Source: a virus (lineage: Duplodnaviria; Caudoviricetes). Taken from it: DNA of 64,000 bases. Below the pieces are notes generated by a model. It was not told the DNA's origin. It made no database searches and saw only the letters and a program-made list of their open reading frames with translations. Made by a program: the position numbers and the translations under genes. Shown piece after piece: positions 14,864 to 49,543 of this stretch. Location: positions 32,001 to 96,000 of IMG/VR virus record IMGVR_UViG_3300028048_000091. One strand, written 5' to 3'. The stretch's first letter is position 1. Each line of letters opens with the position of its first letter.

Positions 14864-16066
14864 TTATAAGATTATAGTGTATCTTTCTTTGAGGGATTTG
14901 AGCCAATTTGCACATTTTTTAGCATTGCCATCTTGAACCATGCAATTTTCGCAAAATACAATAAGTTGATTTATACAACACTCATCCTCTTCACTCCAAG
15001 CAGCAGTATTTTGTCTAACAGGCTCATAAAGTTCCCATTCGTCCTGTTCTGTAATATCACAGATAATTCTATCGTTATACCAATATTTTCCACCTGTAAT
15101 ATCGGTAATTACAAATGAACCAAAATCATTTATGTCGGAATTATGCCTTTTAGCAATGGTGTCGCCAATATTGAAAATAGGAATAATAATCTCCTTCAAC
15201 TCTTTCTTTTCAGCATCCCATTCATATCCTGCTTCTTTCATCTTTTGAAATAAAAGGTCACGCTGTTTTTTGATGGCAGGTTTTATGTCTTGCATCCAAG
15301 TCCATTCACCAAATTTCCCGTCTGACTCAATTTTAAAACCATCATCGACACTTATACCACAATAAGCATAACTATTTTTATTGGTATCTATCTTCTTGAA
15401 AATAAATGGTAAATTACCATCAGCAAGCACATCACCATCCTTTGCATCTTGAATGGTCCAGAGATGATACATATCGCACCAAGAACCACTGAAGTACACA
15501 CCATCATCAAGAGTATACCCGTCACCATCTTTATCTACAGATACTACTTGATTTACCTTGCCATAGCTTGTAACAACCCAATCACCTTCATGAAACTTTG
15601 GCTCAACCTTATCAGCAAACTTCTGCTCACCTTGCTTTTCAAGCCAAGCAATACGTTCATCTTTAATTTCAATAAAATGCTGTTCTGGATTTTTAATAAC
15701 AAAGTTGTCAAGAACTCCATCTTTATTACATTTATAAATTAAACCTTTCTTAAATGTTTCATTGTCAGCCCTTTCCCACCGTGATTTATAACAAAAATAA
15801 CTATTTCCTGCTTTCAATTCAAGTTTAATACATTCAATTTCTTGTCTTTTAAGCCACGATATAAATTCTCTCATTTTATCAGAATGTTCTTGAATACTGC
15901 ATTGAGGTATTTCTTCTTGGAAATAGAATATCATCTCTTTCCTTATCCTCTCATCCTCGCTCTCTTGGAGTTCGGGAATAAGAGTTTCAAGTGCCTCACG
16001 CAACCTTGTAAAACTACTATCAGGCCAATTCTTTTTAACGACCTCTATTGCTTCTTTTCTTTCCAT
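14864..16066 (-). CDS. Modular hypothetical protein (ESEDERIRK/WLEKQGEQK/LWTIQDAKDGDVL/WSEEDE/WLKSLK)
   Basis: Paralog of 20766 and 45913. Confidence 0.75.
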   Translation of the reverse strand: MERKEAIEVVKKNWPDSSFTRLREALETLIPELQESEDERIRKEMIFYFQEEIPQCSIQEHSDKMREFISWLKRQEIECIKLELKAGNSYFCYKSRWERADNETFKKGLIYKCNKDGVLDNFVIKNPEQHFIEIKDERIAWLEKQGEQKFADKVEPKFHEGDWVVTSYGKVNQVVSVDKDGDGYTLDDGVYFSGSWCDMYHLWTIQDAKDGDVLADGNLPFIFKKIDTNKNSYAYCGISVDDGFKIESDGKFGEWTWMQDIKPAIKKQRDLLFQKMKEAGYEWDAEKKELKEIIIPIFNIGDTIAKRHNSDINDFGSFVITDITGGKYWYNDRIICDITEQDEWELYEPVRQNTAAWSEEDECCINQLIVFCENCMVQDGNAKKCANWLKSLKERYTIIL

Positions 16067-18802: not shown

Positions 18803-19606
18803 TTAATTAATTTCTTGCCAATTGGCATTATATATCTTTCCTGTTTGGTTATCCTTAATATATGTAATTGGCACAGGTTTTAGCGAATTAACAACGATTG
18901 CAGACCCTCCTTTCCAATATTGTGCAACAAATGGATAATGTTTAAATGCATTTACCAATGTGCCATATCTCTCAATATCATTCTCAAAATCGTATACTTG
19001 ATTAGGATTTACAAGACAATAATATGTATATTGGCTACCGTTTGATTGGTCATTACCGGGTTCTTTACTTCCCCAAAAGTAGATACCTATATCTGAATTA
19101 TTGGAATATGTATTAGGTTGTCCTTTTTTAACAACCCCATCTGTTATCTTATATGAACTGTCATGCTTCAATACGACTTTATCCCCCGACATTTCAAGTT
19201 GACTCAAAAACATTTGATGTTTCTGTTCTTGCTCTTCTGTCTTTTTCTTTCCAAGGAATACTTCTCCGTAATAGGTATCTCTATATTGGTCATATATCTG
19301 TAGGTATTGTTTCTGATATGCAGGTATATTCAGTTCATTACCTGTACCATCAGGTTTTGTATTATATCCACTTGCTCTGTATCTGAATGTACTGAAATCA
19401 TCTGTTTGTGGAAAATTAGGATTAACCATAAGATAGGCATCACCGCCAGTTCCAATATAAGAACCGTTTTTGATAATACCTATATTAATCCAATTTGTCA
19501 TATCTGTTTCAGATAGACTTTCGTTAAGAAACCTAACATCAGGGTTAAGTTTCTCCATCCATTCGTTAACGTTATCTAACCAATCCTTATTGTTATTTAC
19601 TCCCAT
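18803..19606 (-). CDS. Hypothetical protein with possible C-terminal ADP-ribosyltransferase-like domain
   Basis: N-terminal leader shared with 19597-20511; H.S...GIYF...VYD pattern gives weak support. Confidence 0.5.
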   Translation of the reverse strand: MGVNNNKDWLDNVNEWMEKLNPDVRFLNESLSETDMTNWINIGIIKNGSYIGTGGDAYLMVNPNFPQTDDFSTFRYRASGYNTKPDGTGNELNIPAYQKQYLQIYDQYRDTYYGEVFLGKKKTEEQEQKHQMFLSQLEMSGDKVVLKHDSSYKITDGVVKKGQPNTYSNNSDIGIYFWGSKEPGNDQSNGSQYTYYCLVNPNQVYDFENDIERYGTLVNAFKHYPFVAQYWKGGSAIVVNSLKPVPITYIKDNQTGKIYNANWQEIN

Positions 19607-20511
19607 ATCATAACTTCTCCTTTTCGTCTCATTCTTTCCGATAACTGACAAGGCATCGGATTAACATAGCATTCACCGAATGAAATATCATATGTATATC
19701 GTTTTCCAATACTATCGATGTCATTAAGATGTTCTTGATAATACTTTTCAAAGCCATCGTTTGTTACAGGAATATTGTTTTGATGGCAATATGTTTTATA
19801 TTTGCCAAGTAGTTTATTGCGAATTTCCTTATTTACTTCATCCTTTGATTTAAATGAGGTGAAATATTCTTGTTTGGGGTCATTCTTCCAATATTTATTA
19901 CTTTCTCGGCTATTAACCTTATTACCATTTTTATCAACCCATATTGGTGCTTCATTAGGTGCTTTAATAAGAACGCTGTCTTGGTCATACTTAGCACAAA
20001 GTGATAAACCAAACTGTTTTAATTCATCAAAATCTTTTGTTTGGCCATCTGTTGTATAATTAAATACGATAAATGACGGTTCATAATCGTCCTCGACACC
20101 GTTTGTACCTCTATAACCACCGTATGTAGGTAAGAATGAATATCCACTTTTCTGCAAGTCACTGATAAGTGCCTTTGTTTGTGCATCATTCCTTTCTTGT
20201 GGCATATCACTCCTATTAGCACTAATGTTAATCATACCATTTGTGCCATGTTTCTGAAGTACTCTATCAAGAGTGACTTCATCAATCCTAACAGGCTTAT
20301 TATGATTGCTTATAATACCATAGAAACGGTTCATTACATCTTCATTTACAGTCTTCGCTTTTTCATGAAGTTGTCTGAATGCTTCCTTTCGGTTTCTTTG
20401 TTCTTCTTCGATACTGAGTTTTACTTCATTAATGAAATGGACTTCTGGATTAAGTTTCTCCATCCATTCGTTAACGTTACCTAACCAATCCTTATTGTTA
20501 TTCTGTTGCAT
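19597..20511 (-). CDS. Putative SAM lyase (T3 SAMase-like domain) with N-terminal leader
   Basis: ISANRS...N...GGYRG...EPSFIV...LCAKYDQDSVLI is colinear with T3 SAMase VSAFRS...N...GCYRE...EKTVRV...ACNEWEQDCVLV (recalled from memory). Confidence 0.65.
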   Translation of the reverse strand: MQQNNNKDWLGNVNEWMEKLNPEVHFINEVKLSIEEEQRNRKEAFRQLHEKAKTVNEDVMNRFYGIISNHNKPVRIDEVTLDRVLQKHGTNGMINISANRSDMPQERNDAQTKALISDLQKSGYSFLPTYGGYRGTNGVEDDYEPSFIVFNYTTDGQTKDFDELKQFGLSLCAKYDQDSVLIKAPNEAPIWVDKNGNKVNSRESNKYWKNDPKQEYFTSFKSKDEVNKEIRNKLLGKYKTYCHQNNIPVTNDGFEKYYQEHLNDIDSIGKRYTYDISFGECYVNPMPCQLSERMRRKGEVMIWE

Positions 20512-20535
20512 GATTTAAGAATAATATATCTTAAG

Positions 20536-20687
20536 GCAACTATACAGGGTTTGACCCCATACGTTTCTTGCTTCGCAGGGTTCGTAGCCTCTTCCCTCCA
20601 CAAGCTCTACACCCACTTGCCAATGGGCTATCCATAAATGGATTTTACTTAAATTGCGGTATTAAGACCCATCAAGGGGTCACGCTA
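20536..20687 (-). ncRNA. Orphan TnpB omegaRNA-like structured RNA
   Basis: GC-rich intergenic island with AGCTTGTGGAG...CTGCGAAGCAAGAA, matching the tnpB 3' end of element 2 (AGCTTGTGGAG...CTGTGAAGCAAGAA), and a terminal hairpin; no tnpB. Confidence 0.6.
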
Positions 20688-20765
20688 CATATAAATATCA
20701 CTTGGGGTCAAAAAGTATATAATTACCTATCTTAATATAAATATTGGTGGCCAACAAGTATAATG

Positions 20766-21332
20766 TTATTGGCCATTGATTATCCAAGTGTATCTTTTTT
20801 TGAGTGATTTGAGCCAATCAATATCACACTGATATTCTCTCAAATTAGGATATTGTTCTTTACAATACTCTACAGACCATAAAATAGAAGATATTCTTTT
20901 CTCATCATCTTCACTCCAATCAGAAGGCTTATTTTCTAATTTGAATGTAGAAATAGCATCGGTAAGGCCTTGTCTGTATGCATCTACCATACAATTAACA
21001 GGTTTCCCAAAGCTCTCATTATCTTTTATTGGGTTGTTACGATACTTAGAAACCATTTCTTCTATTACATCGTCATCAGCTTTCTGTTCACCTTGTTTTT
21101 CAAGCCAAGGCAACCACCTTTCCCTAAAATCAGAAAATTGTTTTGGGGTCATTTGGTTGCTATTTATTTCCAAATAATTGATTATTTCTTTTCTTACATT
21201 CTCATTATTACTCTCTTGTAGTTCCGGGGCAACCTCATCAAGTACAGACTTGAATGTATAGCCGCCCTTTATTTCTTTGGCATTCTTCAATTTCTGAACA
21301 AGGCCTTTGTATTTCTGTTCGTAATTTACCAT
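20766..21332 (-). CDS. Modular hypothetical protein (PELQES/WLEKQGEQK/WSEDDE/WLKSLK)
   Basis: Paralog of 14864 and 45913. Confidence 0.7.
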   Translation of the reverse strand: MVNYEQKYKGLVQKLKNAKEIKGGYTFKSVLDEVAPELQESNNENVRKEIINYLEINSNQMTPKQFSDFRERWLPWLEKQGEQKADDDVIEEMVSKYRNNPIKDNESFGKPVNCMVDAYRQGLTDAISTFKLENKPSDWSEDDEKRISSILWSVEYCKEQYPNLREYQCDIDWLKSLKKRYTWIINGQ

Positions 21333-21341
21333 AGTTTTATT

Positions 21342-22532
21342 TTAACTAATGTTGAACTCATTTTTAAGACTGTCTACAAGGTCAAGTTTTTCCCAAGGAT
21401 AATTGATTTGATTTTCTACCAATTCCATTTCCTCACGTGTCTTACCATAATGGCCATTTAATGCCGCATTTTTATATCTTTCAACGCCATTACCAAATCT
21501 CTTTATGATATTATGTGGTTCCAATTTGACATTTTCCTTAACCCATCTAACAAGTGCTGATTCAAGTTCCTTATTTTTATCAAGTTCAATACTGATTGAG
21601 GTTGGTTCTGCAACGCCAATTGAATATGATACATCAACAGTTGCAACATTTGCGATACCGGCGGCAACAATATTTTTAGCAATATATCTACACATCATAT
21701 TTGCTGAATAGTCAACTTTTGATGCATCCTTACCATGAAGTCCGCCGGCTGAAATTCTAAATGATGAACCAAATTGGTCACAAGCAAGTTTTCTATTACA
21801 CATTCCACAATCAGAGACACTACCACCCGTATTCCATACACCGGCCGGATTGACATCAATTACAAAATTCTTGTCTGCAATGAATTTATTATATATATCA
21901 TCACTTAGACCGATTTTGTTATATTGTATAGCATTCGTAATATAACCTCGAAGTATTGAAATATCACATTGGTGCATTGAAGATACTAAAATTGAATTTA
22001 TCTTAACAGGGGTATTACCTTCATATTCAATAACGACTTGCGTTTTAGCATCCGGACCAATCTCTAATGTGCTTTTCATAATAAAGTCACAAATATGTTT
22101 GGTTATATAACACCCCAGTGGCATAAACGTTTCAGTTTCATTTGTTGCACCGGCGGTCATCCAGCCTTGGTCACCTGCTGTGGTTATTTCATCTGATACA
22201 TCAACTGCTTTATGAATCTCTGGGGATTGTTTACCAATCAAGTTAATTATTTTAATGTTTTCGGGATATAATCCGTGATTTTTAGGGTATACTATCTCCT
22301 TAAATACGTTTCTTACAATGCTGTCATAATCTACGACACTTTTAGAATAAATCTCGCCGCCAAGAACTACGATGTTATCTTTCATCATAGTTTCAATACC
22401 ACAACGAGAATTAGAATCTCCGCTAACAAAAGCATCAACCAATGCTCCTGCAATTACATCGCACACTTTGTCGGGATGACCCGGTGTTACGGCTTCTACT
22501 GCCAATACACGTTTGTTTTTGTTTTCTACCAT
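21342..22532 (-). CDS. metK: S-adenosylmethionine synthetase
   Basis: EAVTPGHPDK, AGDQG, PDAKTQV, D.G...RK, GGLHGKDASKVD.SA, YSIGVAEP. Confidence 0.95.
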   Translation of the reverse strand: MVENKNKRVLAVEAVTPGHPDKVCDVIAGALVDAFVSGDSNSRCGIETMMKDNIVVLGGEIYSKSVVDYDSIVRNVFKEIVYPKNHGLYPENIKIINLIGKQSPEIHKAVDVSDEITTAGDQGWMTAGATNETETFMPLGCYITKHICDFIMKSTLEIGPDAKTQVVIEYEGNTPVKINSILVSSMHQCDISILRGYITNAIQYNKIGLSDDIYNKFIADKNFVIDVNPAGVWNTGGSVSDCGMCNRKLACDQFGSSFRISAGGLHGKDASKVDYSANMMCRYIAKNIVAAGIANVATVDVSYSIGVAEPTSISIELDKNKELESALVRWVKENVKLEPHNIIKRFGNGVERYKNAALNGHYGKTREEMELVENQINYPWEKLDLVDSLKNEFNIS

Positions 22533-22571
22533 TTAATTTAAAGTTTTAAAAAATTATTGTTTAAAATTAAA

Positions 22572-22640
22572 TGTAGTGAACCTATTAATTAGATTTTAGC
22601 CGTTTTTAAAGAGGTGGCAAGCACTACAAATCCCCTCTAT
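22572..22640 (-). promoter_or_regulatory. SAM-II-class riboswitch in the metK 5' UTR
   Basis: AGAGG-GGAUUU-GUAGUG-CUUGC-CA-CCUCU-UUAAAAAC-GGCUAAAA...CACUAC: P1 helix, GAUUU, UUGC, GCUAAA and pseudoknot pairing GUAGUG/CACUAC. Confidence 0.75.
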
Positions 22641-22646
22641 CGTTTG

Positions 22647-22680
22647 CAAATATACTATATTTCTACAATATAATAAAGTA
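22647..22680 (-). promoter_or_regulatory. Promoter for riboswitch-metK
   Basis: TAtaTTTG at 22647-22654, immediately upstream of the riboswitch. Confidence 0.7.
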
Positions 22681-25583: not shown

Positions 25584-26958
25584 GTGAACTACCCCCACCT
25601 AAAGGAGGGGGCTTCCCCATTCAACGAAGCGGCTTGCATTAAGGTTTCCCTTAATGTAGAGGTCACTTCTCCAGGGGCGTAAATTCCCGCAGTTCCTGCG
25701 GTATTATATTCATTTTCTAATACAACACTATAAAAATAGTCTCTAAGGTTTAAGGCAGCATTGTAATCACGGTCAATTACGCAACCACAAGTGGGGCATA
25801 CCCATTCCCGGTCAGATAATTGCAGTAAATCGTTCTTACTACCACATTCATGACAGGTCTTACTACTCGGAAACCATTTATCCACGTACATAACACAACT
25901 ATCACGCTCTATGCACTTGTATTCAAGAAAACTACGAAACTCACCAAAACCTAAATCCATAACGGATTTACCAAGGTGCAAAGTACGAGACATATCTTGC
26001 AGGTTTATATCCTCAAGAACAATTACATCATACTTATCCACGTAGTAACGAGATAGTTTATGGCAGTAGTCTAAACGGCAATTAGCAACATGACGGCTTA
26101 ACTTGGATAAACGCTTCCTCGACTTGTAACGATTGGAAGAACCCTTAACCTTACGTGATACCATACGTTGCAGCCTTTTAAGACGTTTCTCGTTCCTCCG
26201 GTAATTCCTAATGTACTTGGCTTTCGTATCATCGGGATTACTATCGGAATCAACGGAGAAATCCGTCAAAGACATGTCAATGCCTACGATTTTCAATTCA
26301 TTGTATTTTTTATGTTTATGCGTATAGCCAACATTTTCATCAGGGATTTCTACGGCAATGGATGCGTAGTATTGCCCATCCCTTGTCTGTTCAATCGTGC
26401 AAGAAGTGATGTTACCCACTAACTCACGATGTAAGACTATATCCACAAACCCCAACTTAGGAAGTTTAAGTTTCCCATTTTCCAACCGGATAGTACCATT
26501 TTGGTTATTCGTTGTATAGGAAAGTTTGCATTTGCTTTTTTTATGCTTTTTGGGGAAGCGTACTTTTTTTCCTTTGCGTTTTCCTTTTTTGCTATCGAAA
26601 TAGTTTTTAAATGCAGTTTTCAGATGTTGCTTTGCGTTGGCGAGTGCAAGTGAGTCTACTTCGTTAAGGAATGTGTATGTATTTTTAAAGTGCGTTACTT
26701 CTTTTAGTTTTGGTTTTAGTCCGTTGTCAAGTTGTGTTTTATAGTCGTTAAGTAGTGAATTGTATATGAGACGTGCACATCCCACCGTCTTATTTATTAA
26801 GATGGCTTGCTGTGTTGTTGGCAGTAGTTTATACTTGTACGCTCGTCTCATTAGTATTGATTATTTATTATAAGTATAGTATACTTATTGTTATAAGTAA
26901 ATAGTAGTTTTGCAATTCATCCCCCACCTGAAGGAAGGGGACTTCTTGCCAAAAAATA
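25584..26958 (-). mobile_element. IS200/IS605-family (IS1341-like, tnpB-only) element 3
   Basis: Related subterminal hairpins at both ends (CCCCCACCT.AAGGA.GGGG), right end ...GGGTAGTTCAC, preceded by TTTAA; interrupts a small ORF starting at 27016. Confidence 0.85.
25589..26851 (-). CDS. tnpB: TnpB RNA-guided endonuclease
   Basis: GIDMS / LEDI / RDYNAALN, Zn finger CHEC..CPTC. Confidence 0.95.
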   Translation of the reverse strand: MRRAYKYKLLPTTQQAILINKTVGCARLIYNSLLNDYKTQLDNGLKPKLKEVTHFKNTYTFLNEVDSLALANAKQHLKTAFKNYFDSKKGKRKGKKVRFPKKHKKSKCKLSYTTNNQNGTIRLENGKLKLPKLGFVDIVLHRELVGNITSCTIEQTRDGQYYASIAVEIPDENVGYTHKHKKYNELKIVGIDMSLTDFSVDSDSNPDDTKAKYIRNYRRNEKRLKRLQRMVSRKVKGSSNRYKSRKRLSKLSRHVANCRLDYCHKLSRYYVDKYDVIVLEDINLQDMSRTLHLGKSVMDLGFGEFRSFLEYKCIERDSCVMYVDKWFPSSKTCHECGSKNDLLQLSDREWVCPTCGCVIDRDYNAALNLRDYFYSVVLENEYNTAGTAGIYAPGEVTSTLRETLMQAASLNGEAPSFRWG

Positions 26959-27020: not shown

Positions 27021-27476
27021 TTATAGTGCTATTATATCCTCTAAATATGCCCACTTTGCTATATCAGTAATGGGAATACGGCCTCTTTTATTCTTATATA
27101 CTTCTGCAACAACTCCTCCGTCAAGTGACTTTTGTTCAACCTTATATCCGGTTGGGTGAGGGTATTGTTCCGTTATAAATACCTTTTCTTCTTTATTATA
27201 AAATGCCAGTTCAAAGTCTAAGTAACCAACATTACCTATTGCACCATAATATATAAGACAGTGACCTCTATGATTATCATCGTCATTAGTGCATGGTTCT
27301 TCACTTGCATCATGCCATACTGAGGTAGTGGGTTCTTCTTTCAGCAACTTTCTGATATACTTCACCTTATCTATAACCGGATAAGTAAGTTCCTTATTAT
27401 AGTCTTGAGTCTGAAGGTTCCAAAAAGAATAGTCAATTGCTTCTAAAAGCATGTTAAGTTTTTCTCTATCAGTCAT
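27021..27476 (-). CDS. Hypothetical phage protein (VWHDASEEP/KWAY.ED)
   Basis: 151-aa ORF. Confidence 0.65.
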   Translation of the reverse strand: MTDREKLNMLLEAIDYSFWNLQTQDYNKELTYPVIDKVKYIRKLLKEEPTTSVWHDASEEPCTNDDDNHRGHCLIYYGAIGNVGYLDFELAFYNKEEKVFITEQYPHPTGYKVEQKSLDGGVVAEVYKNKRGRIPITDIAKWAYLEDIIAL

Positions 27477-28252
27477 TTATTTTTTTTGTAAACAAATAGT
27501 TTTTCTGTCTTAATATTCTGCTTATCACCCTTTTTGGTTGTTCCCATACCATCCTTTTTCTTCTTCTCCCAAATGCATGTGAAATCATCAGGCGCTGTAT
27601 ATTCTGATACAAATACTTGATGCCCTTCATTGGTCATCTTTCTTACCCATTCCCAAAACTTATCATGTGGGAAATCATCCATATATGCCTTTGTCTCAAA
27701 ATATGGGGGGTCTGCATATATAACACTATGCTCCGGGAAAGTAAATTCATCAAATGAACCACATAAAAACTCTGTTGTATCCATATGTTCGAAATTGGCC
27801 AATTGTTTCATCAAGCCATTATATGCCTCATGGCAATGATTTTCCGGTTCTCCATTCTTATTACGTTTATTGTAATTTGGTTTTGCAAAACCATTAAACC
27901 ATGATGAGCCATAACTAAGTGCATTACCAACATATCCTATAATATAGTCAGGCCAACGTCCATCGCCATTAAGATATGACTGCTTAATTGAATTGTATTG
28001 CTCTTCTGTAATTTCATACGGAATGTTGTCAGATGGATAACCAAAAATTACATTCTGTTTCAATTTATACCATAAATCAATTACATACTTGTTACTATCA
28101 ATTGCCCATTTCTTTGCATGTGGTACTTCTGATACAATAGAACACCCACCACAGCACATATCAACAAACAATGTGTTTTCATCCTTTATTGCACCCATAA
28201 GAATAGGTACAATATCATTTGCAAACTTCTTTTTACTTCCGCAATATCTCAT
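27473..28252 (-). CDS. DNA adenine methyltransferase (Dam/D12 class)
   Basis: MRYCGSK, D.CCGG.S, YADPPY, VFVSEY. Confidence 0.9.
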   Translation of the reverse strand: MRYCGSKKKFANDIVPILMGAIKDENTLFVDMCCGGCSIVSEVPHAKKWAIDSNKYVIDLWYKLKQNVIFGYPSDNIPYEITEEQYNSIKQSYLNGDGRWPDYIIGYVGNALSYGSSWFNGFAKPNYNKRNKNGEPENHCHEAYNGLMKQLANFEHMDTTEFLCGSFDEFTFPEHSVIYADPPYFETKAYMDDFPHDKFWEWVRKMTNEGHQVFVSEYTAPDDFTCIWEKKKKDGMGTTKKGDKQNIKTEKLFVYKKNK

Positions 28253-32304: not shown

Positions 32305-33060
32305 TTATTTTATTTCCCAAACTTTACCTTCAAACACATAATCTTTGCATTCTTGGAGTTTAGTTAAAAGGTTTGTTTTAACATCTCTCTTTGGGTCTTT
32401 TCTCAAAACCCAGAAGTCACTTGTATATTTACGTGCATGTTGTTGCTTCTTTATTTTTGATGCTGATATAAGTCGTGCTTTTGCTTCTAATGAGAACACA
32501 TCATGTATATACAAACCGGCATCAGCAGCACAAACAGCAGAAAACACTGAAAGTAAATGTTGTAAGCCACCTGATACTGAATTCTGCATTTTCCATACCA
32601 ATATTCCATTTGGTTTTAATACACGCTTACATTCATTTATCCACCAATATATATTCTCATATCCCTCTTGCATTGGATACCAACTTGAAAATCTATTTGA
32701 AATAAGATTTGAGCCTTCTTTCTTTTCTACTACTGACTTACAAGTTTTAGGCGAACAAACAAATGGCAAATCACATACAATTGATGATACACTATTATCT
32801 TCAAGTGGTAATTTATTAAATGGCGTAATCTTAATGATTTCATCCCTCATTGGAAATACATCCATCAATATTTTAGGTACAGGTATTTCATACTTATTAC
32901 CTTGACGTTTGCCATAGAATTTTAGTTCAGATGCAGTGATATCACATTCAAATGGCTCTCCATCATTATATAAATCCATTATCCATTTAAGAATTTCTGA
33001 TTGGTCTGTACTGATATTCTTAATAACATTGGAGTTATTCAATTTTTGTTCTTTATCCAT
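32305..33060 (-). CDS. Putative DNA amino-methyltransferase (variant DLPF motif)
   Basis: LPLEDNSVSSIVCDLPF, ECKRVLKPNGILVWK.Q, QQHARK. Confidence 0.7.
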   Translation of the reverse strand: MDKEQKLNNSNVIKNISTDQSEILKWIMDLYNDGEPFECDITASELKFYGKRQGNKYEIPVPKILMDVFPMRDEIIKITPFNKLPLEDNSVSSIVCDLPFVCSPKTCKSVVEKKEGSNLISNRFSSWYPMQEGYENIYWWINECKRVLKPNGILVWKMQNSVSGGLQHLLSVFSAVCAADAGLYIHDVFSLEAKARLISASKIKKQQHARKYTSDFWVLRKDPKRDVKTNLLTKLQECKDYVFEGKVWEIK

Positions 33061-33978: not shown

Positions 33979-35031
33979 TTAATTTAAAAAGAAGTTATAC
34001 TCCGGTTTATTATATACTTGGAAGCCCTTTAAGAAGTCTCTAATGCCAAGTATTTTCTTACCTTTTATTTGTATTGTATTAACTGAAACAACCTCATCCC
34101 CTGAAGCATATGATGGAAGTATATACAGATATTTTTTCCAATCAGTTATGATATCAGAACCGTTATAGTGTTCTTCAATCCATTTATTATCCTTATGAAC
34201 AAGGTCTGCATCATATACCTTAAAGGTTATTTCTTTCACATCATCAAAATGCCCCTCATATTCCTCATTTTCATCCTTGACCCATTTACGTATGGTAAGA
34301 TTGAATGTTGTTCCAAAATGCGGTGAGAGAGAACGTATCATATCATACAATTCCTTTGATGTATACATGTCATCACCATACATATGAAATGTTGTATTTT
34401 CCAATGTCAATTTGGGCGCATGAAAAATCTTGCTATCTAACTTCTTGGGAATTATTGGCTGTTCAACATTTGCATAGAATTTATCATTTAAGATACTTTC
34501 TATAATACCTTCAGCCATTATTGGTGTTTGTGATGCCAAACGTTTGAATAGCGTTTCATAATTATCATTTGGATTAATATTTATTCCATATTGACAAATT
34601 ATACCGCCGGTATCTATTTTATCGGCTAACTTGATAGCAGACAGCCCGGTTCTATTGAAACCATATCTTATTGCCCAACTAATAGGTGCTGCACCTCTAA
34701 GCAACGGTAATAGTGATGCATGTATATTAAATGCATATTTAACCTTTTCTGTAACACACTTAGGTAAGTACTTATATGAAATAACACAATATACATTACC
34801 ACTTATATCATCAAGCCAATTAAGAAACTCCTTATCTTCAAGGCTATTTGGAATATATACGGGGATGTTACGCTGTTTGGCAATGTCATATACACGTTCA
34901 GTACCAAATACAGGTTTGTCATTGGACGTTACAAATCCGACGACATTGTAATAGTTTGCTAAAAACTTAAATGTTTCAATTGGAAAATCCCCACTTCCGA
35001 AACATACTATTCTTAATTCGTTTAACTCCAT
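33979..35031 (-). CDS. fmt: Methionyl-tRNA formyltransferase-like
   Basis: FGS.DF, VT..DKP, FNIHASLLP.LRGAAPI.WAI, IDTG, APKL. Confidence 0.85.
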   Translation of the reverse strand: MELNELRIVCFGSGDFPIETFKFLANYYNVVGFVTSNDKPVFGTERVYDIAKQRNIPVYIPNSLEDKEFLNWLDDISGNVYCVISYKYLPKCVTEKVKYAFNIHASLLPLLRGAAPISWAIRYGFNRTGLSAIKLADKIDTGGIICQYGININPNDNYETLFKRLASQTPIMAEGIIESILNDKFYANVEQPIIPKKLDSKIFHAPKLTLENTTFHMYGDDMYTSKELYDMIRSLSPHFGTTFNLTIRKWVKDENEEYEGHFDDVKEITFKVYDADLVHKDNKWIEEHYNGSDIITDWKKYLYILPSYASGDEVVSVNTIQIKGKKILGIRDFLKGFQVYNKPEYNFFLN

Positions 35032-37614: not shown

Positions 37615-39060
37615 TTACTTCATTTTATATCCTTTAATATGTTTTAATAATGTCTCTTTATCAATTTTAGGGTTATTGAATGCTAATTTCAAGGCATAAT
37701 CAAGACATTCTTTAACTTCTCTACCAGGTTTCAACCCCTTGATAGCCATTACATCATTTCCGTCAATAGGTAATCTATATCCGGACATGTCAGTGTTTTC
37801 CTCAATCATTTCAGCAGTCCTATCATCAATTAAACGACATTGGTTATTAAAACAATACTCCGGAGCATGTGCCTTGTTATCTGCATCAATCAATGACAAA
37901 AGCATTGCATAATACTTATTGCCACACTCATATTGGAGTTTACGAAGTGACTTATCTTTCATGTGTGAACAGTCATCACCCCAATTCTTAGTTCTCATGT
38001 GATTCTTAACCAAGAACTGTACATCCTTAATGAATTCATTTGAATATTTCAAACGTCTTAGAATGGTTTCACATAAGTCAACAGATGCCAACTCATGCTG
38101 ATAGAAATGGACATTACCATTTTCATCAACAGTTTTTGTCTTAATCTTACCGATATCATGCAGTAATGCGGCCATCCGTAGAGCCAACTTGCCATTAATG
38201 GTAAAAGCACCATAATATAAACAATCATTCGTTACATTATCCAATACTTTGAGAGTATGCTCGAAAACAGTACCAAAATGATATTTGTTCTGTTTCATTC
38301 CAAATGTTTCTTCCAACTCTGGGATAACATATTTCATTGCCCCAATATCTTTAAGCAACTTCATTGCACATACAGGGTCTTTACATAAAAGCATCTTATT
38401 CAATTCATCCGCAATACGTTCCTTGGTAATGATAGACAATCTATCGACATTGAAATACATACCTTTAAGGGTCGTTTCCTCTATATACCAATCAGTTGAC
38501 TCACCATGAAATCTTGAGAAAAAACGCACACACCTCAAAATTCTCAAAGGGTCATCACAATAGACAATATCAGGTGTTGAAGTAACCCTAATACGATGTT
38601 CATTTATGTCTTTTAAGCCATTCCCGGTTATGTCAATTAACTCTTCTTTACTTATATTCCATAACAATGAGTTAATTGTTAAATCCCTACGCATTACATC
38701 TTCTTCGAGTGTACCGTATGCAGTTTCCGGATTCCTACTACTTTCATCATGATACTGTTCTTTCCTTGTCTGAACACATTCTATCTCAACATCGGGAAAA
38801 GATGCAAGTTTGAACATGGCAGTACCATATGTGGGATATGTAACAACAGAACCAAAAGTGAAATGGTTTTTCTCCATCCACTCAGCAAACTTTAACCCTC
38901 CGTTTTCTTTGGTAATCACGAGGTCAATGTCCTTCACATCGTTACCCATAACCATATCACGGACAGCACCTCCTACTGAATATACGTTATTCTCCCATTC
39001 ACTACCGGCAATGATAGTCTTTAAATGATTTAATATTTCCTTATATTTCTCTATTCTCAT
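37615..39060 (-). CDS. cca: CCA tRNA nucleotidyltransferase with HD domain
   Basis: VGGAVRD, KDIDL, RRDLTIN, DDPLRILR..RF, ERI..E, EHT, LLHDIGK. Confidence 0.9.
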   Translation of the reverse strand: MRIEKYKEILNHLKTIIAGSEWENNVYSVGGAVRDMVMGNDVKDIDLVITKENGGLKFAEWMEKNHFTFGSVVTYPTYGTAMFKLASFPDVEIECVQTRKEQYHDESSRNPETAYGTLEEDVMRRDLTINSLLWNISKEELIDITGNGLKDINEHRIRVTSTPDIVYCDDPLRILRCVRFFSRFHGESTDWYIEETTLKGMYFNVDRLSIITKERIADELNKMLLCKDPVCAMKLLKDIGAMKYVIPELEETFGMKQNKYHFGTVFEHTLKVLDNVTNDCLYYGAFTINGKLALRMAALLHDIGKIKTKTVDENGNVHFYQHELASVDLCETILRRLKYSNEFIKDVQFLVKNHMRTKNWGDDCSHMKDKSLRKLQYECGNKYYAMLLSLIDADNKAHAPEYCFNNQCRLIDDRTAEMIEENTDMSGYRLPIDGNDVMAIKGLKPGREVKECLDYALKLAFNNPKIDKETLLKHIKGYKMK

Positions 39061-46966: not shown

Positions 46967-47746
46967 TTATAGTTGACTCGTCTCGGATGCAATGCGCTTG
47001 TTGGCAATATCAACATATTCCTGCGATATTTCGAAGCCAATGTACTTACGATTTAGTTGTAATGCCGCAATAGCCGTTGTGCCAGAACCCATAAAACAAT
47101 CGAGCACGATGTCACCCTCATTGCTCCAAGACCTTATGTGGTCAATAGCAAGTTGCTCAGGAAATATGGCAGGGTGTTTAAACGCTATTTTGTTAGACGC
47201 ACAGTTACTTCCTACAGGATAATACCAAATATTGCCTCTTGCCGTAAATTCGTTTTTTGGAACATACATTTCGTAATGTGCTTGTCCATTTCTGTTTGAC
47301 TTACATGTCCTTGGTTGCATATTCTTGACTTTTACGTCACGTATCGGGTTAAATGTTTTGCATTTGCCTTTGCTAAATACAAACATATATTCAAAATGCT
47401 GTCTATATCTCATGGATGTTTTGTTCCATGTTGGTATTTCTTTGTGGTATATCATTGTGTCATGTAGATTAAAACCGCACTCCATAAAGTATAATGCCTG
47501 ACGGAAAGACGTTCCAGTCTCAGAGCCTTTGATTGTTGCGTCACCGACTACCCATACAACCACGCCACCTTGCTTTGTTACTCGGTATAGTTCTTTGACT
47601 ACGTTCTCAAAGTCAAAAGAATAGCCATTGTATTTACGCAGATTGTCATAAGGTGGTGACGTGCATACCATGTCTATGGTATTGTCGCCCAACATCTTCA
47701 TTCCTTCTACATTGTCTTGACAATAAATTTTGTTTAACTCTAACAT
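46967..47746 (-). CDS. Beta-class N4-C/N6-A DNA methyltransferase
   Basis: TSPPY, HPAIFP, VLDCFMGSGTT. Confidence 0.9.
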   Translation of the reverse strand: MLELNKIYCQDNVEGMKMLGDNTIDMVCTSPPYDNLRKYNGYSFDFENVVKELYRVTKQGGVVVWVVGDATIKGSETGTSFRQALYFMECGFNLHDTMIYHKEIPTWNKTSMRYRQHFEYMFVFSKGKCKTFNPIRDVKVKNMQPRTCKSNRNGQAHYEMYVPKNEFTARGNIWYYPVGSNCASNKIAFKHPAIFPEQLAIDHIRSWSNEGDIVLDCFMGSGTTAIAALQLNRKYIGFEISQEYVDIANKRIASETSQL

Positions 47747-48202: not shown

Positions 48203-49543
48203 TTAAATTCCTAATTGTTTTCTTCTTATACTAAGGAGTAGGTCATTAACAAAATCAACGTTTATCTCATCCGGAATAGTAGACTCGGCCATTGCTTTCT
48301 CCATTTCGTCTTTTCTTGCATTGAGTTTTTCCATAAGTTCATCATATTCATACTTATGGTTTCTGATGTCAAGCAAGAACTCTGCATCAATTCCGCTTCT
48401 GTCAACTTTGTAACCCTCTCCACGTGCAATCTCAATACCACAATTCATAAGTCTGAAACATTCACATATGTTCTTAGCATCATATGACTTATGAAGATTA
48501 CTCTCATACCTCACTGGATTACGATGTTTAACCCAATCTTGATATTCAAGCCACCTACGGCAATGTTGGCTGTAAGAATCCTTCATATAAGAAATATGGC
48601 ATATCGGCATTTCATCCTTTTCGACTGAAGACAACCTCAGTTCATTAGATGTGTGGTCTCGATTAACCATACCTTTATATCCAATAGGCTTCTGTTCCTT
48701 ATACCATTTTTCAAGGTTATCGGCTGTGAAGTCATAACTATCATAAGGCGCACTATCCACACGTAAATGATAAAAATCTACAATAAGTTTTACCATATTC
48801 TTGAATTGTGCTTTTTTAAGAACCTCTTTCAAATCCTCACGTCCATCTTCCTTAATTTGTCTTACAATCTTAATTGTATCATAGTCAGTAATGTCATTCC
48901 ATGCATCAATCAAATCCTCACAAGTTACACCTTCATGAAGAAAATGATTTCCCCAATCATAGAAACAGCCAAACATAGTAGGCATGTTAGCAATATTGAC
49001 AAGGCCGCAATACTCTTGTTTTAAGCCCCTATATTCAAGCCAATTGAGTATCTTACTACTTCCTTGTTTATGGAATGTGTACACAAAGTCAAGTAATTCC
49101 CTACGCTCAGGAACATCCCAATTAATAAGTTTCTTCAAACCAGTAGCCTTTTTGATTTGAGAGCGTCCGTATGAGTAAAAACTGTCGAAACACTTCTTTG
49201 TAAGAAACTCATTCTTATATGATTTAAGTTCAGTCATAATAGGATGCTCAAACTGAACATACTTGTCATCTACAAACAATGCTTCAAGTACGGTAGGATT
49301 AGACTTCAGTAGCAGATTCATGAACTTCTGCATTTCATACCATACAATGTCATTTGTCTCATTGGCAATCTGGTCTTGATAATCCAAACCAAGACCAATT
49401 AACTGTTCAGCCGGTGCTAAGAACACGCCTCCATAGTCTTCATCGGACAAAGGGGTGCTAATACCGTGACAGTGGCTTCCACGTAAGTAATTGTAAATCA
49501 ATAAGTTACGCTCTTTTATTTCACTAAAACTATAAGTCTTCAT
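48203..49543 (-). CDS. Pol-beta superfamily nucleotidyltransferase
   Basis: RGSH.HG.STP.SD.D.GG, LLKSNP..LEAL, YDAKN, LLDIR. Confidence 0.8.
   Translation of the reverse strand: MKTYSFSEIKERNLLIYNYLRGSHCHGISTPLSDEDYGGVFLAPAEQLIGLGLDYQDQIANETNDIVWYEMQKFMNLLLKSNPTVLEALFVDDKYVQFEHPIMTELKSYKNEFLTKKCFDSFYSYGRSQIKKATGLKKLINWDVPERRELLDFVYTFHKQGSSKILNWLEYRGLKQEYCGLVNIANMPTMFGCFYDWGNHFLHEGVTCEDLIDAWNDITDYDTIKIVRQIKEDGREDLKEVLKKAQFKNMVKLIVDFYHLRVDSAPYDSYDFTADNLEKWYKEQKPIGYKGMVNRDHTSNELRLSSVEKDEMPICHISYMKDSYSQHCRRWLEYQDWVKHRNPVRYESNLHKSYDAKNICECFRLMNCGIEIARGEGYKVDRSGIDAEFLLDIRNHKYEYDELMEKLNARKDEMEKAMAESTIPDEINVDFVNDLLLSIRRKQLGI

Follow-up and report, generated by a model that had tools for sequence, protein, structure and literature searches.

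Why would a phage carry, within about 3 kb of its genome, both a gene predicted to destroy S-adenosylmethionine (SAM) and a gene to make it? The question is raised by a locus in a 64,000-nucleotide (nt) stretch of phage DNA, referred to here as the window, which corresponds to positions 32001-96000 of the 106.7-kb IMG/VR record IMGVR_UViG_3300028048_000091. There, a probable promoter, a riboswitch-like element, a SAM synthetase gene (metK) and a gene for a SAM lyase homolog follow each other on the minus strand. Type I and III restriction, the BREX (bacteriophage exclusion) defence and DNA methylation all use SAM as their cofactor. The outcome of a phage infection therefore depends in part on who controls the SAM pool, and phage T3 is the precedent for a phage that destroys SAM. 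We propose that the locus is a sensor-source-sink module for SAM control in jumbo phages of Bacteroidota, in which an injected lyase would drain SAM and a switch-gated MetK would replenish it; we give this reading a probability of about 0.45.

The window has a G+C content of about 34% and nearly all its genes lie on the minus strand. According to CheckV the record is a fragment, about 27% complete, which implies a whole phage of roughly 400 kb. Contigs carrying homologs of the lyase measure 330-400 kb and belong to bins named Porphyromonadaceae, Paludibacteraceae and Bacteroidales; the source is a giant phage of rumen or gut Bacteroidota. Nucleotide and protein searches of INPHARED, with the region and the lyase as queries, yielded no relatives, metK alone being matched. 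The relatives compared below are designated G001-G013 (G000 being the window itself), and further metagenome leaders and contigs are labelled L; all compared contigs fall in one broad group, the Bacteroidota jumbo phages. A preliminary description, based on the letters of the window, had listed a promoter, a SAM-II-like riboswitch, an intact metK and a SAM lyase homolog in this region. All four were recovered on the minus strand where they had been placed, and the analyses that follow bear out each of these assignments, with the aptamer falling below the Rfam cut-off. The description had also put metK beside the lyase gene, which does not hold in the window, where an open reading frame (ORF) of 188 amino acids (aa) (20766-21332) and a structured spacer of 254 nt intervene.

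The gene at 19597-20511 (minus strand, as are all features described below unless stated otherwise) encodes a 304-aa protein that we assign to the T3-type SAM lyase family on the basis of PF23780, its fold and its motifs. It scored 35.1 bits against PF23780 (cut-off 28), and 36.3 bits in a six-frame search, and its family comprises at least 107 clusters. A leader (residues 1-29, nt 20425-20511) is followed by a helical linker, the PF23780 core (residues 96-196, nt 19924-20226), a helical insertion and a conserved C-terminal strand. A single-sequence phmmer search of the PDB with the lyase returned nothing relevant, whereas a profile built from 44 family members matched T3 SAMase alone in that database, aligning the SAxR and Q-D-(S/C)-V-L motifs; neither the single sequence nor the profile matched 9GAB or 9GAD. 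Structural comparisons were in agreement with the profile result. With an AlphaFold2 (AF2) model of mean predicted local distance difference test score (pLDDT) 82 as query, the best Foldseek matches were T3 SAMase, Svi3-3 and then the SAM-AMP lyase, six of the eight best rows being SAM lyases. VIA-align gave Z scores of 9.7 and 9.3 for T3 SAMase (root mean square deviation about 4 Å over 129-132 residues), 6.4 for Svi3-3 and 4.5 for the SAM-AMP lyase; the T3 scores lie well above the next unrelated rows.

The catalytic signature is kept as well. Gly56, Glu69 and Gln104 of Svi3-3 are strictly conserved among SAM lyases, and Tyr58 packs on the substrate (Guo et al., PMC7877911). The window protein contains G131-x-Y133...E144, with the +11 spacing of G56-x-Y58...E69 in Svi3-3, followed by Q177-D-S (Q-D-C in T3); these residues were mapped by motif and spacing, the HMMER alignment to T3 being offset in the loop. 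Among 11 module-associated lyase domains, G131, E144 and Q177 were invariant in all 11, and the Tyr position was Y in nine and F in two. By motif alignment alone, a Leu stands at the position of Thr112 of the SAM-AMP lyase. A marginal match of the lyase to the PADLOC model PDC-M38B (E 9e-4, 16.8 bits) was disregarded, and PADLOC matched nothing among the other module proteins. By its modelled fold and its signature, the product of 19597-20511 is thus a predicted T3-type SAM lyase.

With the T3 enzyme (gp0.3; PF23780; PDB 7OCK, 8BB1) this protein shares its fold, the SAxR, G-x-Y...E and Q-D-(S/C)-V-L motifs, its being encoded by a phage and presumably, by analogy, a role in counter-defence through SAM depletion. 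The differences are in its build and setting. T3 SAMase has 152 aa, whereas the window lyase has 304 and contains a cleavable-looking leader, a helical linker and an insertion of about 75 residues; T3 SAMase is the product of the first early gene, whereas the window lyase is probably a packaged protein (see below). The link to MetK is physical in T3 and genomic in the window phage, which, unlike T3, brings its own MetK and SAM sensor, and relatives of which fuse the lyase to an ADP-ribosyltransferase (ART)-like domain.

The metK gene (21342-22532) encodes a SAM synthetase of 396 aa. Its three Pfam domains, PF00438, PF02772 and PF02773, all score above their cut-offs and phrog_1569 matches at 288 bits; the NCBIfam equivalog model TIGR01034 scores 296.1 bits, just under its cut-off of 309.4. 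The protein aligns to E. coli MetK over residues 7-384, and in this alignment it keeps the motifs GHPDK, AGDQG, PDAK, DCG..RK and GKD.SKVD, while the Gly-rich loop is altered, GGGAF reading AGGLH; which residues are catalytic is general knowledge of the E. coli enzyme. Being full length, with three domains and its catalytic motifs present, the gene is intact, and its sequence indicates that it probably encodes an active, divergent enzyme of a phage type. Phage metK is not new in itself, since 124 phage records in INPHARED carry it. It occurs as an auxiliary gene in Streptococcus Javan prophages and in Faecalibacterium phage FP_Brigit, both of which, like the window, encode a full-length MetK; the window gene has in addition a SAM riboswitch and a linked lyase, the Javan and FP_Brigit records being compared by presence of metK only.

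A second, host-like metK lineage occupies the same slot, behind a leader of the phage type, in G001, G002, G011 and L115. Its products are 52-73% identical to MetK proteins encoded after bacterial-type leaders on metagenome contigs, and 33-36% identical to the window type. A further form was observed on the 277-kb contig of G006 (L071:2588-4762, minus strand), where the riboswitch-controlled metK encodes 724 aa. Residues 3-266 and 581-719 of this protein match MetK, and the approximately 315 residues between them, which have no Pfam match, look like an intein or homing element.

Upstream of metK, the octamer TATATTTG (22647-22654) matches TAnnTTTG, which we take to be the -7 box of Bacteroidetes sigma-A promoters, and lies 8 nt before helix P1 of the element described next. 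Because TAnnTTTG is not enriched across the window (86 found versus about 92 expected), support for a promoter comes from conserved position only: a perfect TAnnTTTG is found 6-20 nt before P1 in seven of eight diverged phage metK leaders. This placement and the fit to the -7 box indicate that TATATTTG is probably part of a host-type promoter.

The element itself (22586-22643) is a divergent aptamer of the SAM-II long-loop class. Helix P1 is formed by AGAGG (22634-22638) and CCUCU (22610-22614), and the core by GAUUUG (22627-22632), GCUUGC (22617-22622) and GCUAAAA (22594-22600), ending 61 nt before the metK AUG and thus within the 5′ untranslated region (UTR) of the gene. When the whole window was searched at Rfam gathering scores nothing passed, and the aptamer surfaced in a permissive local search only. 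There, RF01726 matched it over its full length at 35.1 bits (601 nt searched, E 6e-5), short of the gathering cut-off of 44. The shortfall is general among the phage leaders, which score 26-42 bits against RF01726 as compared with 55-66 bits for the six bacterial-type leaders that were scored. The element also precedes metK in a near-identical relative (35.9 bits), as well as a metK with only 36% identity to that of the window (26.3 bits).

To collect further leaders we used a pattern made of the shared core GATTTG, GCTTGC and GCTAAAA, which fixes 19 core bases. It placed the element before metK in about ten jumbo-phage contigs, and a metagenome scan found it before metK-like ORFs in several dozen more, some of them larger than 200 kb; 73 of 115 distinct matches to the pattern precede a MetK-matching ORF of at least 100 aa. 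The set defined by the pattern corresponds to RF01726, because the six bacterial-type leaders score 55-66 bits. GAUUUG, GCUUGC and GCUAAA(A), which occur in this order with an A-rich linker, are invariant in all 38 aligned phage and bacterial leaders, but this invariance of the core arises by construction, the leaders having been fetched with a pattern that fixes those bases; independent support for the core is the full-length match to RF01726.

Helix P1 varies in a compensatory manner: GUGG/CCAC, GAGG/CCUC, GAGAG/CUCUC, GGAG/CUCC and GGGG/CCCC were all found. Pairing was counted by a custom script with swapped-partner controls, because MAFFT fails to register P1 across variants. Helices formed with a leader's own partner average 4.93 bp, compared with 3.61 ± 0.16 bp when 3′ strands were swapped between leaders. 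Owing to the varying spacers, RNAalifold could not derive a useful consensus from whole leaders aligned with MAFFT. The SAM-II long-loop motif has been listed for "Bacteroidetes, marine" (Weinberg et al. 2010, PMC2864571). The phage element has the same core, P1, A-rich linker and position in the metK 5′ UTR, with a promoter box upstream, and differs in that its P1 is of the GAGG/CCUC type instead of GUGG/CCAC, its spacers are shorter and it is encoded by a phage. Judged on these features, the UTR element is a covarying, divergent variant of the RF01726 class, though not a member by Rfam's score criterion, and it appears to be a maintained relative of the host metK riboswitch that would be read by host RNA polymerase.

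How such an element might control metK is suggested by the region that follows it, a predicted expression platform (22526-22596) that consists of hairpin P3 and a switching segment. P3, directly after GCUAAAA, pairs AAUCU (22591-22595) with AGGUU (22579-22583), and its stem covaries (AAUCU/AGGUU, AAUCU/AGAUU, AAUCC/GGAUU, UUCC/GGAA and AAAUCU/AGAUUU). The switching segment CACUACA (22572-22578) has two possible pairing partners, the aptamer loop UGUAGUG (22622-22628) and the start-codon region (22526-22539), which contains the AUG (22530-22532); the metK leader lacks a Shine-Dalgarno sequence. In the phage leaders, loop and downstream partner change together: UGUAGUG/CACUACA occurs in four lineages, and UGUGAUG/CAUCAUA and UGUGGUG/(A)CCAC were also found. 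The minimum-energy fold pairs the AUG with the switching segment in five of the eight phage leaders, the window included. Pairing of the loop requires the invariant U, G and G that flank it and should consequently compete with the SAM-bound core. In the predicted scheme, at high SAM the aptamer would fold and free CACUACA to cover the metK start-codon region, turning translation off; at low SAM the aptamer loop would hold CACUACA, leaving the AUG open and translation on. The switch therefore, on the modelled folds, probably works by hiding the metK start codon and, if this three-state model holds, would gate the translation of metK alone. Start-codon hiding through a three-way competition is a proposal made here and not part of the text of Weinberg et al. 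2010 (PMC2864571).

Related arrangements were seen elsewhere among the collected leaders. Many bacterial RF01726 leaders (for example L094, L076, L088, L128 and L162) have a complement of the 4-nt variable loop and its flanks 40-70 nt downstream, with loop/complement pairs such as GAGUAG/CUACUC, GGAUUG/CAAUCC and GAACCG/GGUUCA, the excess over swapped controls not being significant. Small viral contigs, presumed to be marine (L022, L024, L025, L027, L036, L048, L049, L051, L061 and L063; also L018 and L062), contain classical SAM-II/SAM-V-like aptamers; in these leaders GCUAAAA runs directly into the Shine-Dalgarno sequence AAAGGAG and the AUG of an ORF of 86-104 aa.

The preliminary description, although right in its list of parts, had missed a third conserved partner as well as the likely packaging of proteins of the module in the virion. 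This partner is a gene for 267 aa (18803-19606) that overlaps the end of the lyase gene by 10 nt. Its product has no Pfam or PHROG match. Nearly all of the top 50 VIA matches of its AF2 model (pLDDT 85) were ART-superfamily proteins or toxins that use nicotinamide adenine dinucleotide (NAD), aligned over residues 141-257, and they include ParT, diphtheria toxin, MbcT, RES toxins, Tpt1, Arr, DarT and PARPs; VIA Z scores, however, did not exceed 5.7, and Foldseek E-values were 0.05 or worse. An invariant H148, a nearly invariant S150 and a GIYFW motif fit the signature of an NAD site. We take the ADP-ribosyltransferase-superfamily fold of the C-terminal half as a lead from modelling, not as proof.

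The lyase and the ART-like protein start with nearly the same 29 residues: residues 3-28 of the lyase share 81% identity with the corresponding 26 residues of the ART-like protein, and the leaders end in F-(I/L)-N-E, as FINE and FLNE. Other members of the lyase family carry three or more leader types, many of which end in LNE or LSE. G005, G007 and G008 encode fusion proteins of 705-984 aa in which the ART-like domain stands N-terminal to lyase domains; a DUF3293 domain is present in one of them as well. A Peptidase_S77 prohead protease is present in relatives, scoring 70.5 bits in G008, which is complete, and 66.2 bits in G005. In phage T4 the prohead protease gp21 cuts after (L/I)-x-E and so processes internal proteins targeted to the head, and T4 cargo includes the injected anti-restriction protein IPI* and the ADP-ribosyltransferase Alt. 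In both phages unrelated proteins begin with a common short leader that ends in (L/I)-x-E. A prohead protease of the T4 type is encoded by the relatives G008 and G005, though none was found in the 27% fragment to which the window belongs, and the cargo would consist of a counter-defence enzyme and an ART-fold enzyme. The two cases differ in that the T4 leader has about 10 residues and that of the window phage about 29, and in that a SAM lyase is a different cargo. By analogy, these observations suggest that the phage head is loaded with the lyase and the ART-like protein, which would enter the host along with the DNA. A common leader that ends in a putative protease site also supports the idea of the lyase acting first, on entry.

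Is this combination of genes kept in other phages? The window, G001-G008 and G010-G013 all have the switch, metK and a PF23780 gene in this order and on one strand, the lyase of G004 being found by Pfam and missed by our custom family profile. In most loci the lyase is zero to two genes from metK; in G001 and G002 it is 6 kb away. It is duplicated in G010 and G013, and fused into proteins of 518-984 aa in G005, G007, G008 and G011, and still lies directly downstream. Of the genes within the 16-kb neighbourhood of the module in the window, just three recur in the seven other phage lineages examined, namely metK, the lyase and the ART-like gene; the one exception is a homolog of the Dam methyltransferase next to metK in G009. 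Thus metK and the lyase do co-occur in related jumbo phages, as the preliminary description required, and together with one further gene they are common to otherwise unrelated neighbourhoods. The trio has persisted through replacement of metK, fusion, duplication and the loss of all other neighbours, which points to selection for the combination, with the caveat that all these phages come from one broad group and do not represent independent lineages. In G009 (L069:3906-4817 and L069:461-1312, plus strand), we noted that metK has the Dam-type methyltransferase homolog upstream and, downstream, the ART-like gene and a weak radical-SAM-like ORF (22 bits, below cut-off).

The interval between metK and the lyase gene is variable. 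In the window it contains the 188-aa ORF (20766-21332), which starts 9 nt after metK, had no Pfam, PHROG, NCBIfam or PADLOC match, is absent between metK and the lyase in the relatives and lies outside the conserved module. It is followed by the non-coding, G+C-richer spacer of 254 nt (20512-20765), with a minimum free energy of -74.4 kcal/mol (z -3.2; none of 200 shuffles as stable) and two copies of ATATTTATAT at its 5′ side. The spacer had neither an Rfam match nor a blastn match within the window, and may be the RNA remnant of a mobile element. The corresponding interval of G001 and G002 is occupied by two large ORFs that resemble the window ORF at 14864-16066 (no Pfam match), and the interval seems to be a hot spot for insertion. 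A small hairpin and a U-rich tract, which may terminate the metK transcript, follow the metK unit before the spacer, and clearer ones follow metK in G005, G007 and G010, which suggests that metK is its own transcription unit. The sequence ATATTTAT recurs 25-35 nt before lyase genes in relatives. We rejected it as a defined promoter, as it is neither enriched nor promoter-placed in the window; it may be the U-tract of a terminator, because it follows the hairpin after metK in several relatives.

The sensor-source-sink model assembles these parts as follows. As the sink, a T3-type lyase would be made with a leader ending in I-N-E. A T4-type prohead protease would probably remove this leader, and the enzyme would be loaded into the head alongside the ART-like effector and delivered with the DNA. 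By cleaving SAM it would bring the SAM level down as soon as infection begins and so weaken defences that depend on SAM, Type I/III restriction-modification and BREX among them. As the sensor, the host-type promoter would drive the riboswitch of the SAM-II long-loop class, which would bind SAM; as the source, phage MetK, escaping the lyase, would make SAM for the phage DNA methyltransferases. Three such methyltransferase-like genes had been proposed in the window. Two stand, a D12-class (Dam-like) N6-adenine DNA methyltransferase at 27473-28252 (PF02086, 41.9 bits versus a cut-off of 22) and an N6/N4 DNA methyltransferase at 46967-47746 (PF01555, 173.6 bits), and both are, from their sequences, likely consumers of SAM; the third, at 32305-33060, is weak, its 21.5 bits lying below the 26.7 needed. 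This drain-then-refill logic is plausible and fits the conserved gene order. A more far-reaching form of the model, which we consider somewhat unlikely, has the packaged SAM lyase and an NAD-using ART-fold enzyme collapse host SAM before any phage gene is read; the captured riboswitch would sense the drop and let a lyase-resistant MetK be translated, so that the phage, and not the host's defences, would obtain the SAM, for methylation of a genome of about 400 kb.

Several observations weigh against the sensor-source-sink model. Its main weakness is that, if the lyase stays active, the product of phage MetK would be destroyed as well, in a futile cycle; the model needs a limited dose or a limited lifetime of the lyase, or separation of the two activities in time. 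Where the spacers between metK and the lyase measure 50-80 nt, as in some relatives, co-transcription is possible and low SAM would induce both genes. In G009, the sole exception to the conserved order, the lyase is 41 kb from metK. No prohead protease was found in the window's record, itself a 27% fragment. As to the switch, the aptamer stays below the gathering cut-off of its class, the fold that covers the AUG is absent in three of the eight phage leaders, and shuffled leaders often pair the AUG with something. In addition, across all 71 metK leaders and with G-U pairs allowed, the downstream segment is not significantly more complementary to a leader's own loop than to the loops of other leaders in a permutation test (5.77 versus 5.58 ± 0.11), and we infer this pairing for the subset of phage leaders alone.

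The strongest rival explanation, although we regard it as unlikely, is that the linkage reflects a physical partnership between MetK and the lyase, in which the lyase would bind phage MetK, and MetK may stabilise the lyase or restrain it in the producing cell, or the lyase may regulate MetK; the genes would then stay together because their products form a complex, and not because they perform opposing steps at different times. SAMase of T3 and E. coli MetK assemble into a 4:4 complex, and MetK stabilises the lyase in vivo (bioRxiv 10.1101/2023.02.27.530186). The nearest structural match of the window lyase is T3 SAMase, rather than the trimeric Svi3-3, and the gene pair stays close across deep divergence and replacement of metK. 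Yet T3 SAMase contacts MetK through its own N-terminal tail (bioRxiv 10.1101/2023.02.27.530186), whereas the N-terminus here is an unrelated leader, and the presence of two metK lineages, 36% identical, in the same position is awkward for a specific interface. The opposite view, that there is no functional coupling at all and that a metK captured with its host leader and an ordinary counter-defence lyase merely share an inherited gene order, strikes us as distinctly unlikely. It would account for metK being common in phages (the 124 INPHARED records), for the clearly host-like character of one metK lineage and for the 41 kb between the genes in G009, and the contigs, coming from one broad phage group, are not independent lineages. 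It sits poorly with the conservation of metK, the lyase and the ART-like gene where flanking genes are not conserved, with the replacement of metK by a different lineage at the same spot, and with a lyase that is duplicated and fused yet stays directly downstream.

A quite improbable alternative is that the lyase acts on a SAM derivative such as SAM-AMP, as an anti-CRISPR like AcrIIIB4, metK being an independent supply gene. Such a phage enzyme exists: a PII-fold lyase that has an N-terminal extension acts on SAM-AMP but does not cleave SAM, and signalling by SAM-AMP, a type III CRISPR signal, was first described in Bacteroides fragilis (PMC12255297). The SAM-AMP lyases (the C. botulinum enzyme and AcrIIIB4) share with the window lyase a PII-like fold, the catalytic Glu and conserved Gln that are common to both enzyme types, and, in the phage protein, an N-terminal extension. 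Against this, the window lyase has no detectable sequence similarity to them: AcrIIIB4 was found by its BLAST similarity to the C. botulinum enzyme, whereas our family profile finds T3 SAMase alone in the PDB. The Z score is 4.5 to the SAM-AMP lyase versus 9.7 to T3, the B-loop sequence, Q-D-S-V-L, resembles that of T3 (Q-D-C-V-L) and has Leu in place of the adenine-binding Thr112, and the linkage to metK would be left unexplained. Sequence and structure thus disfavour a SAM-AMP lyase. Finally, the UTR element could be the decayed relic of a captured host riboswitch that has lost SAM sensing, in keeping with the low scores (26-42 bits) of every phage copy, all below the Rfam cut-off. We consider this highly improbable, because a relic would not keep the core nucleotides invariant, preserve P1 by compensatory changes in at least five phage variants and change the downstream partner of the loop along with the loop.

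Elsewhere in the window, and on the same strand, we noted a TnpB-type gene with OrfB_IS605 and Cas12f1-like TNB domains (25589-26851), and genes for a formyltransferase-like protein (33979-35031), a CCA-adding/poly(A) polymerase-HD protein (37615-39060) and an RlaP-family nucleotidyltransferase (48203-49543).

Each part of the module is of a known kind. Full-text literature searches turned up no account of a SAM riboswitch in a phage, of metK paired with a lyase in a phage or of a packaged SAM lyase, and riboswitches have been called "a rare feature in phages" (PMC9004378). The module offers a compact predicted SAM-responsive translational switch that would work without a Shine-Dalgarno sequence, more than 100 long-form putative SAM lyases and a candidate head-targeting leader for Bacteroidota phages. 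Some giant phages that infect Bacteroidota of the gut and rumen may both break down and rebuild SAM, with an RNA sensor that would derive from the host's own control of metK. If this is true, the module would be a clear case of a riboswitch serving a viral infection programme, and of an injected metabolic enzyme used as counter-defence.

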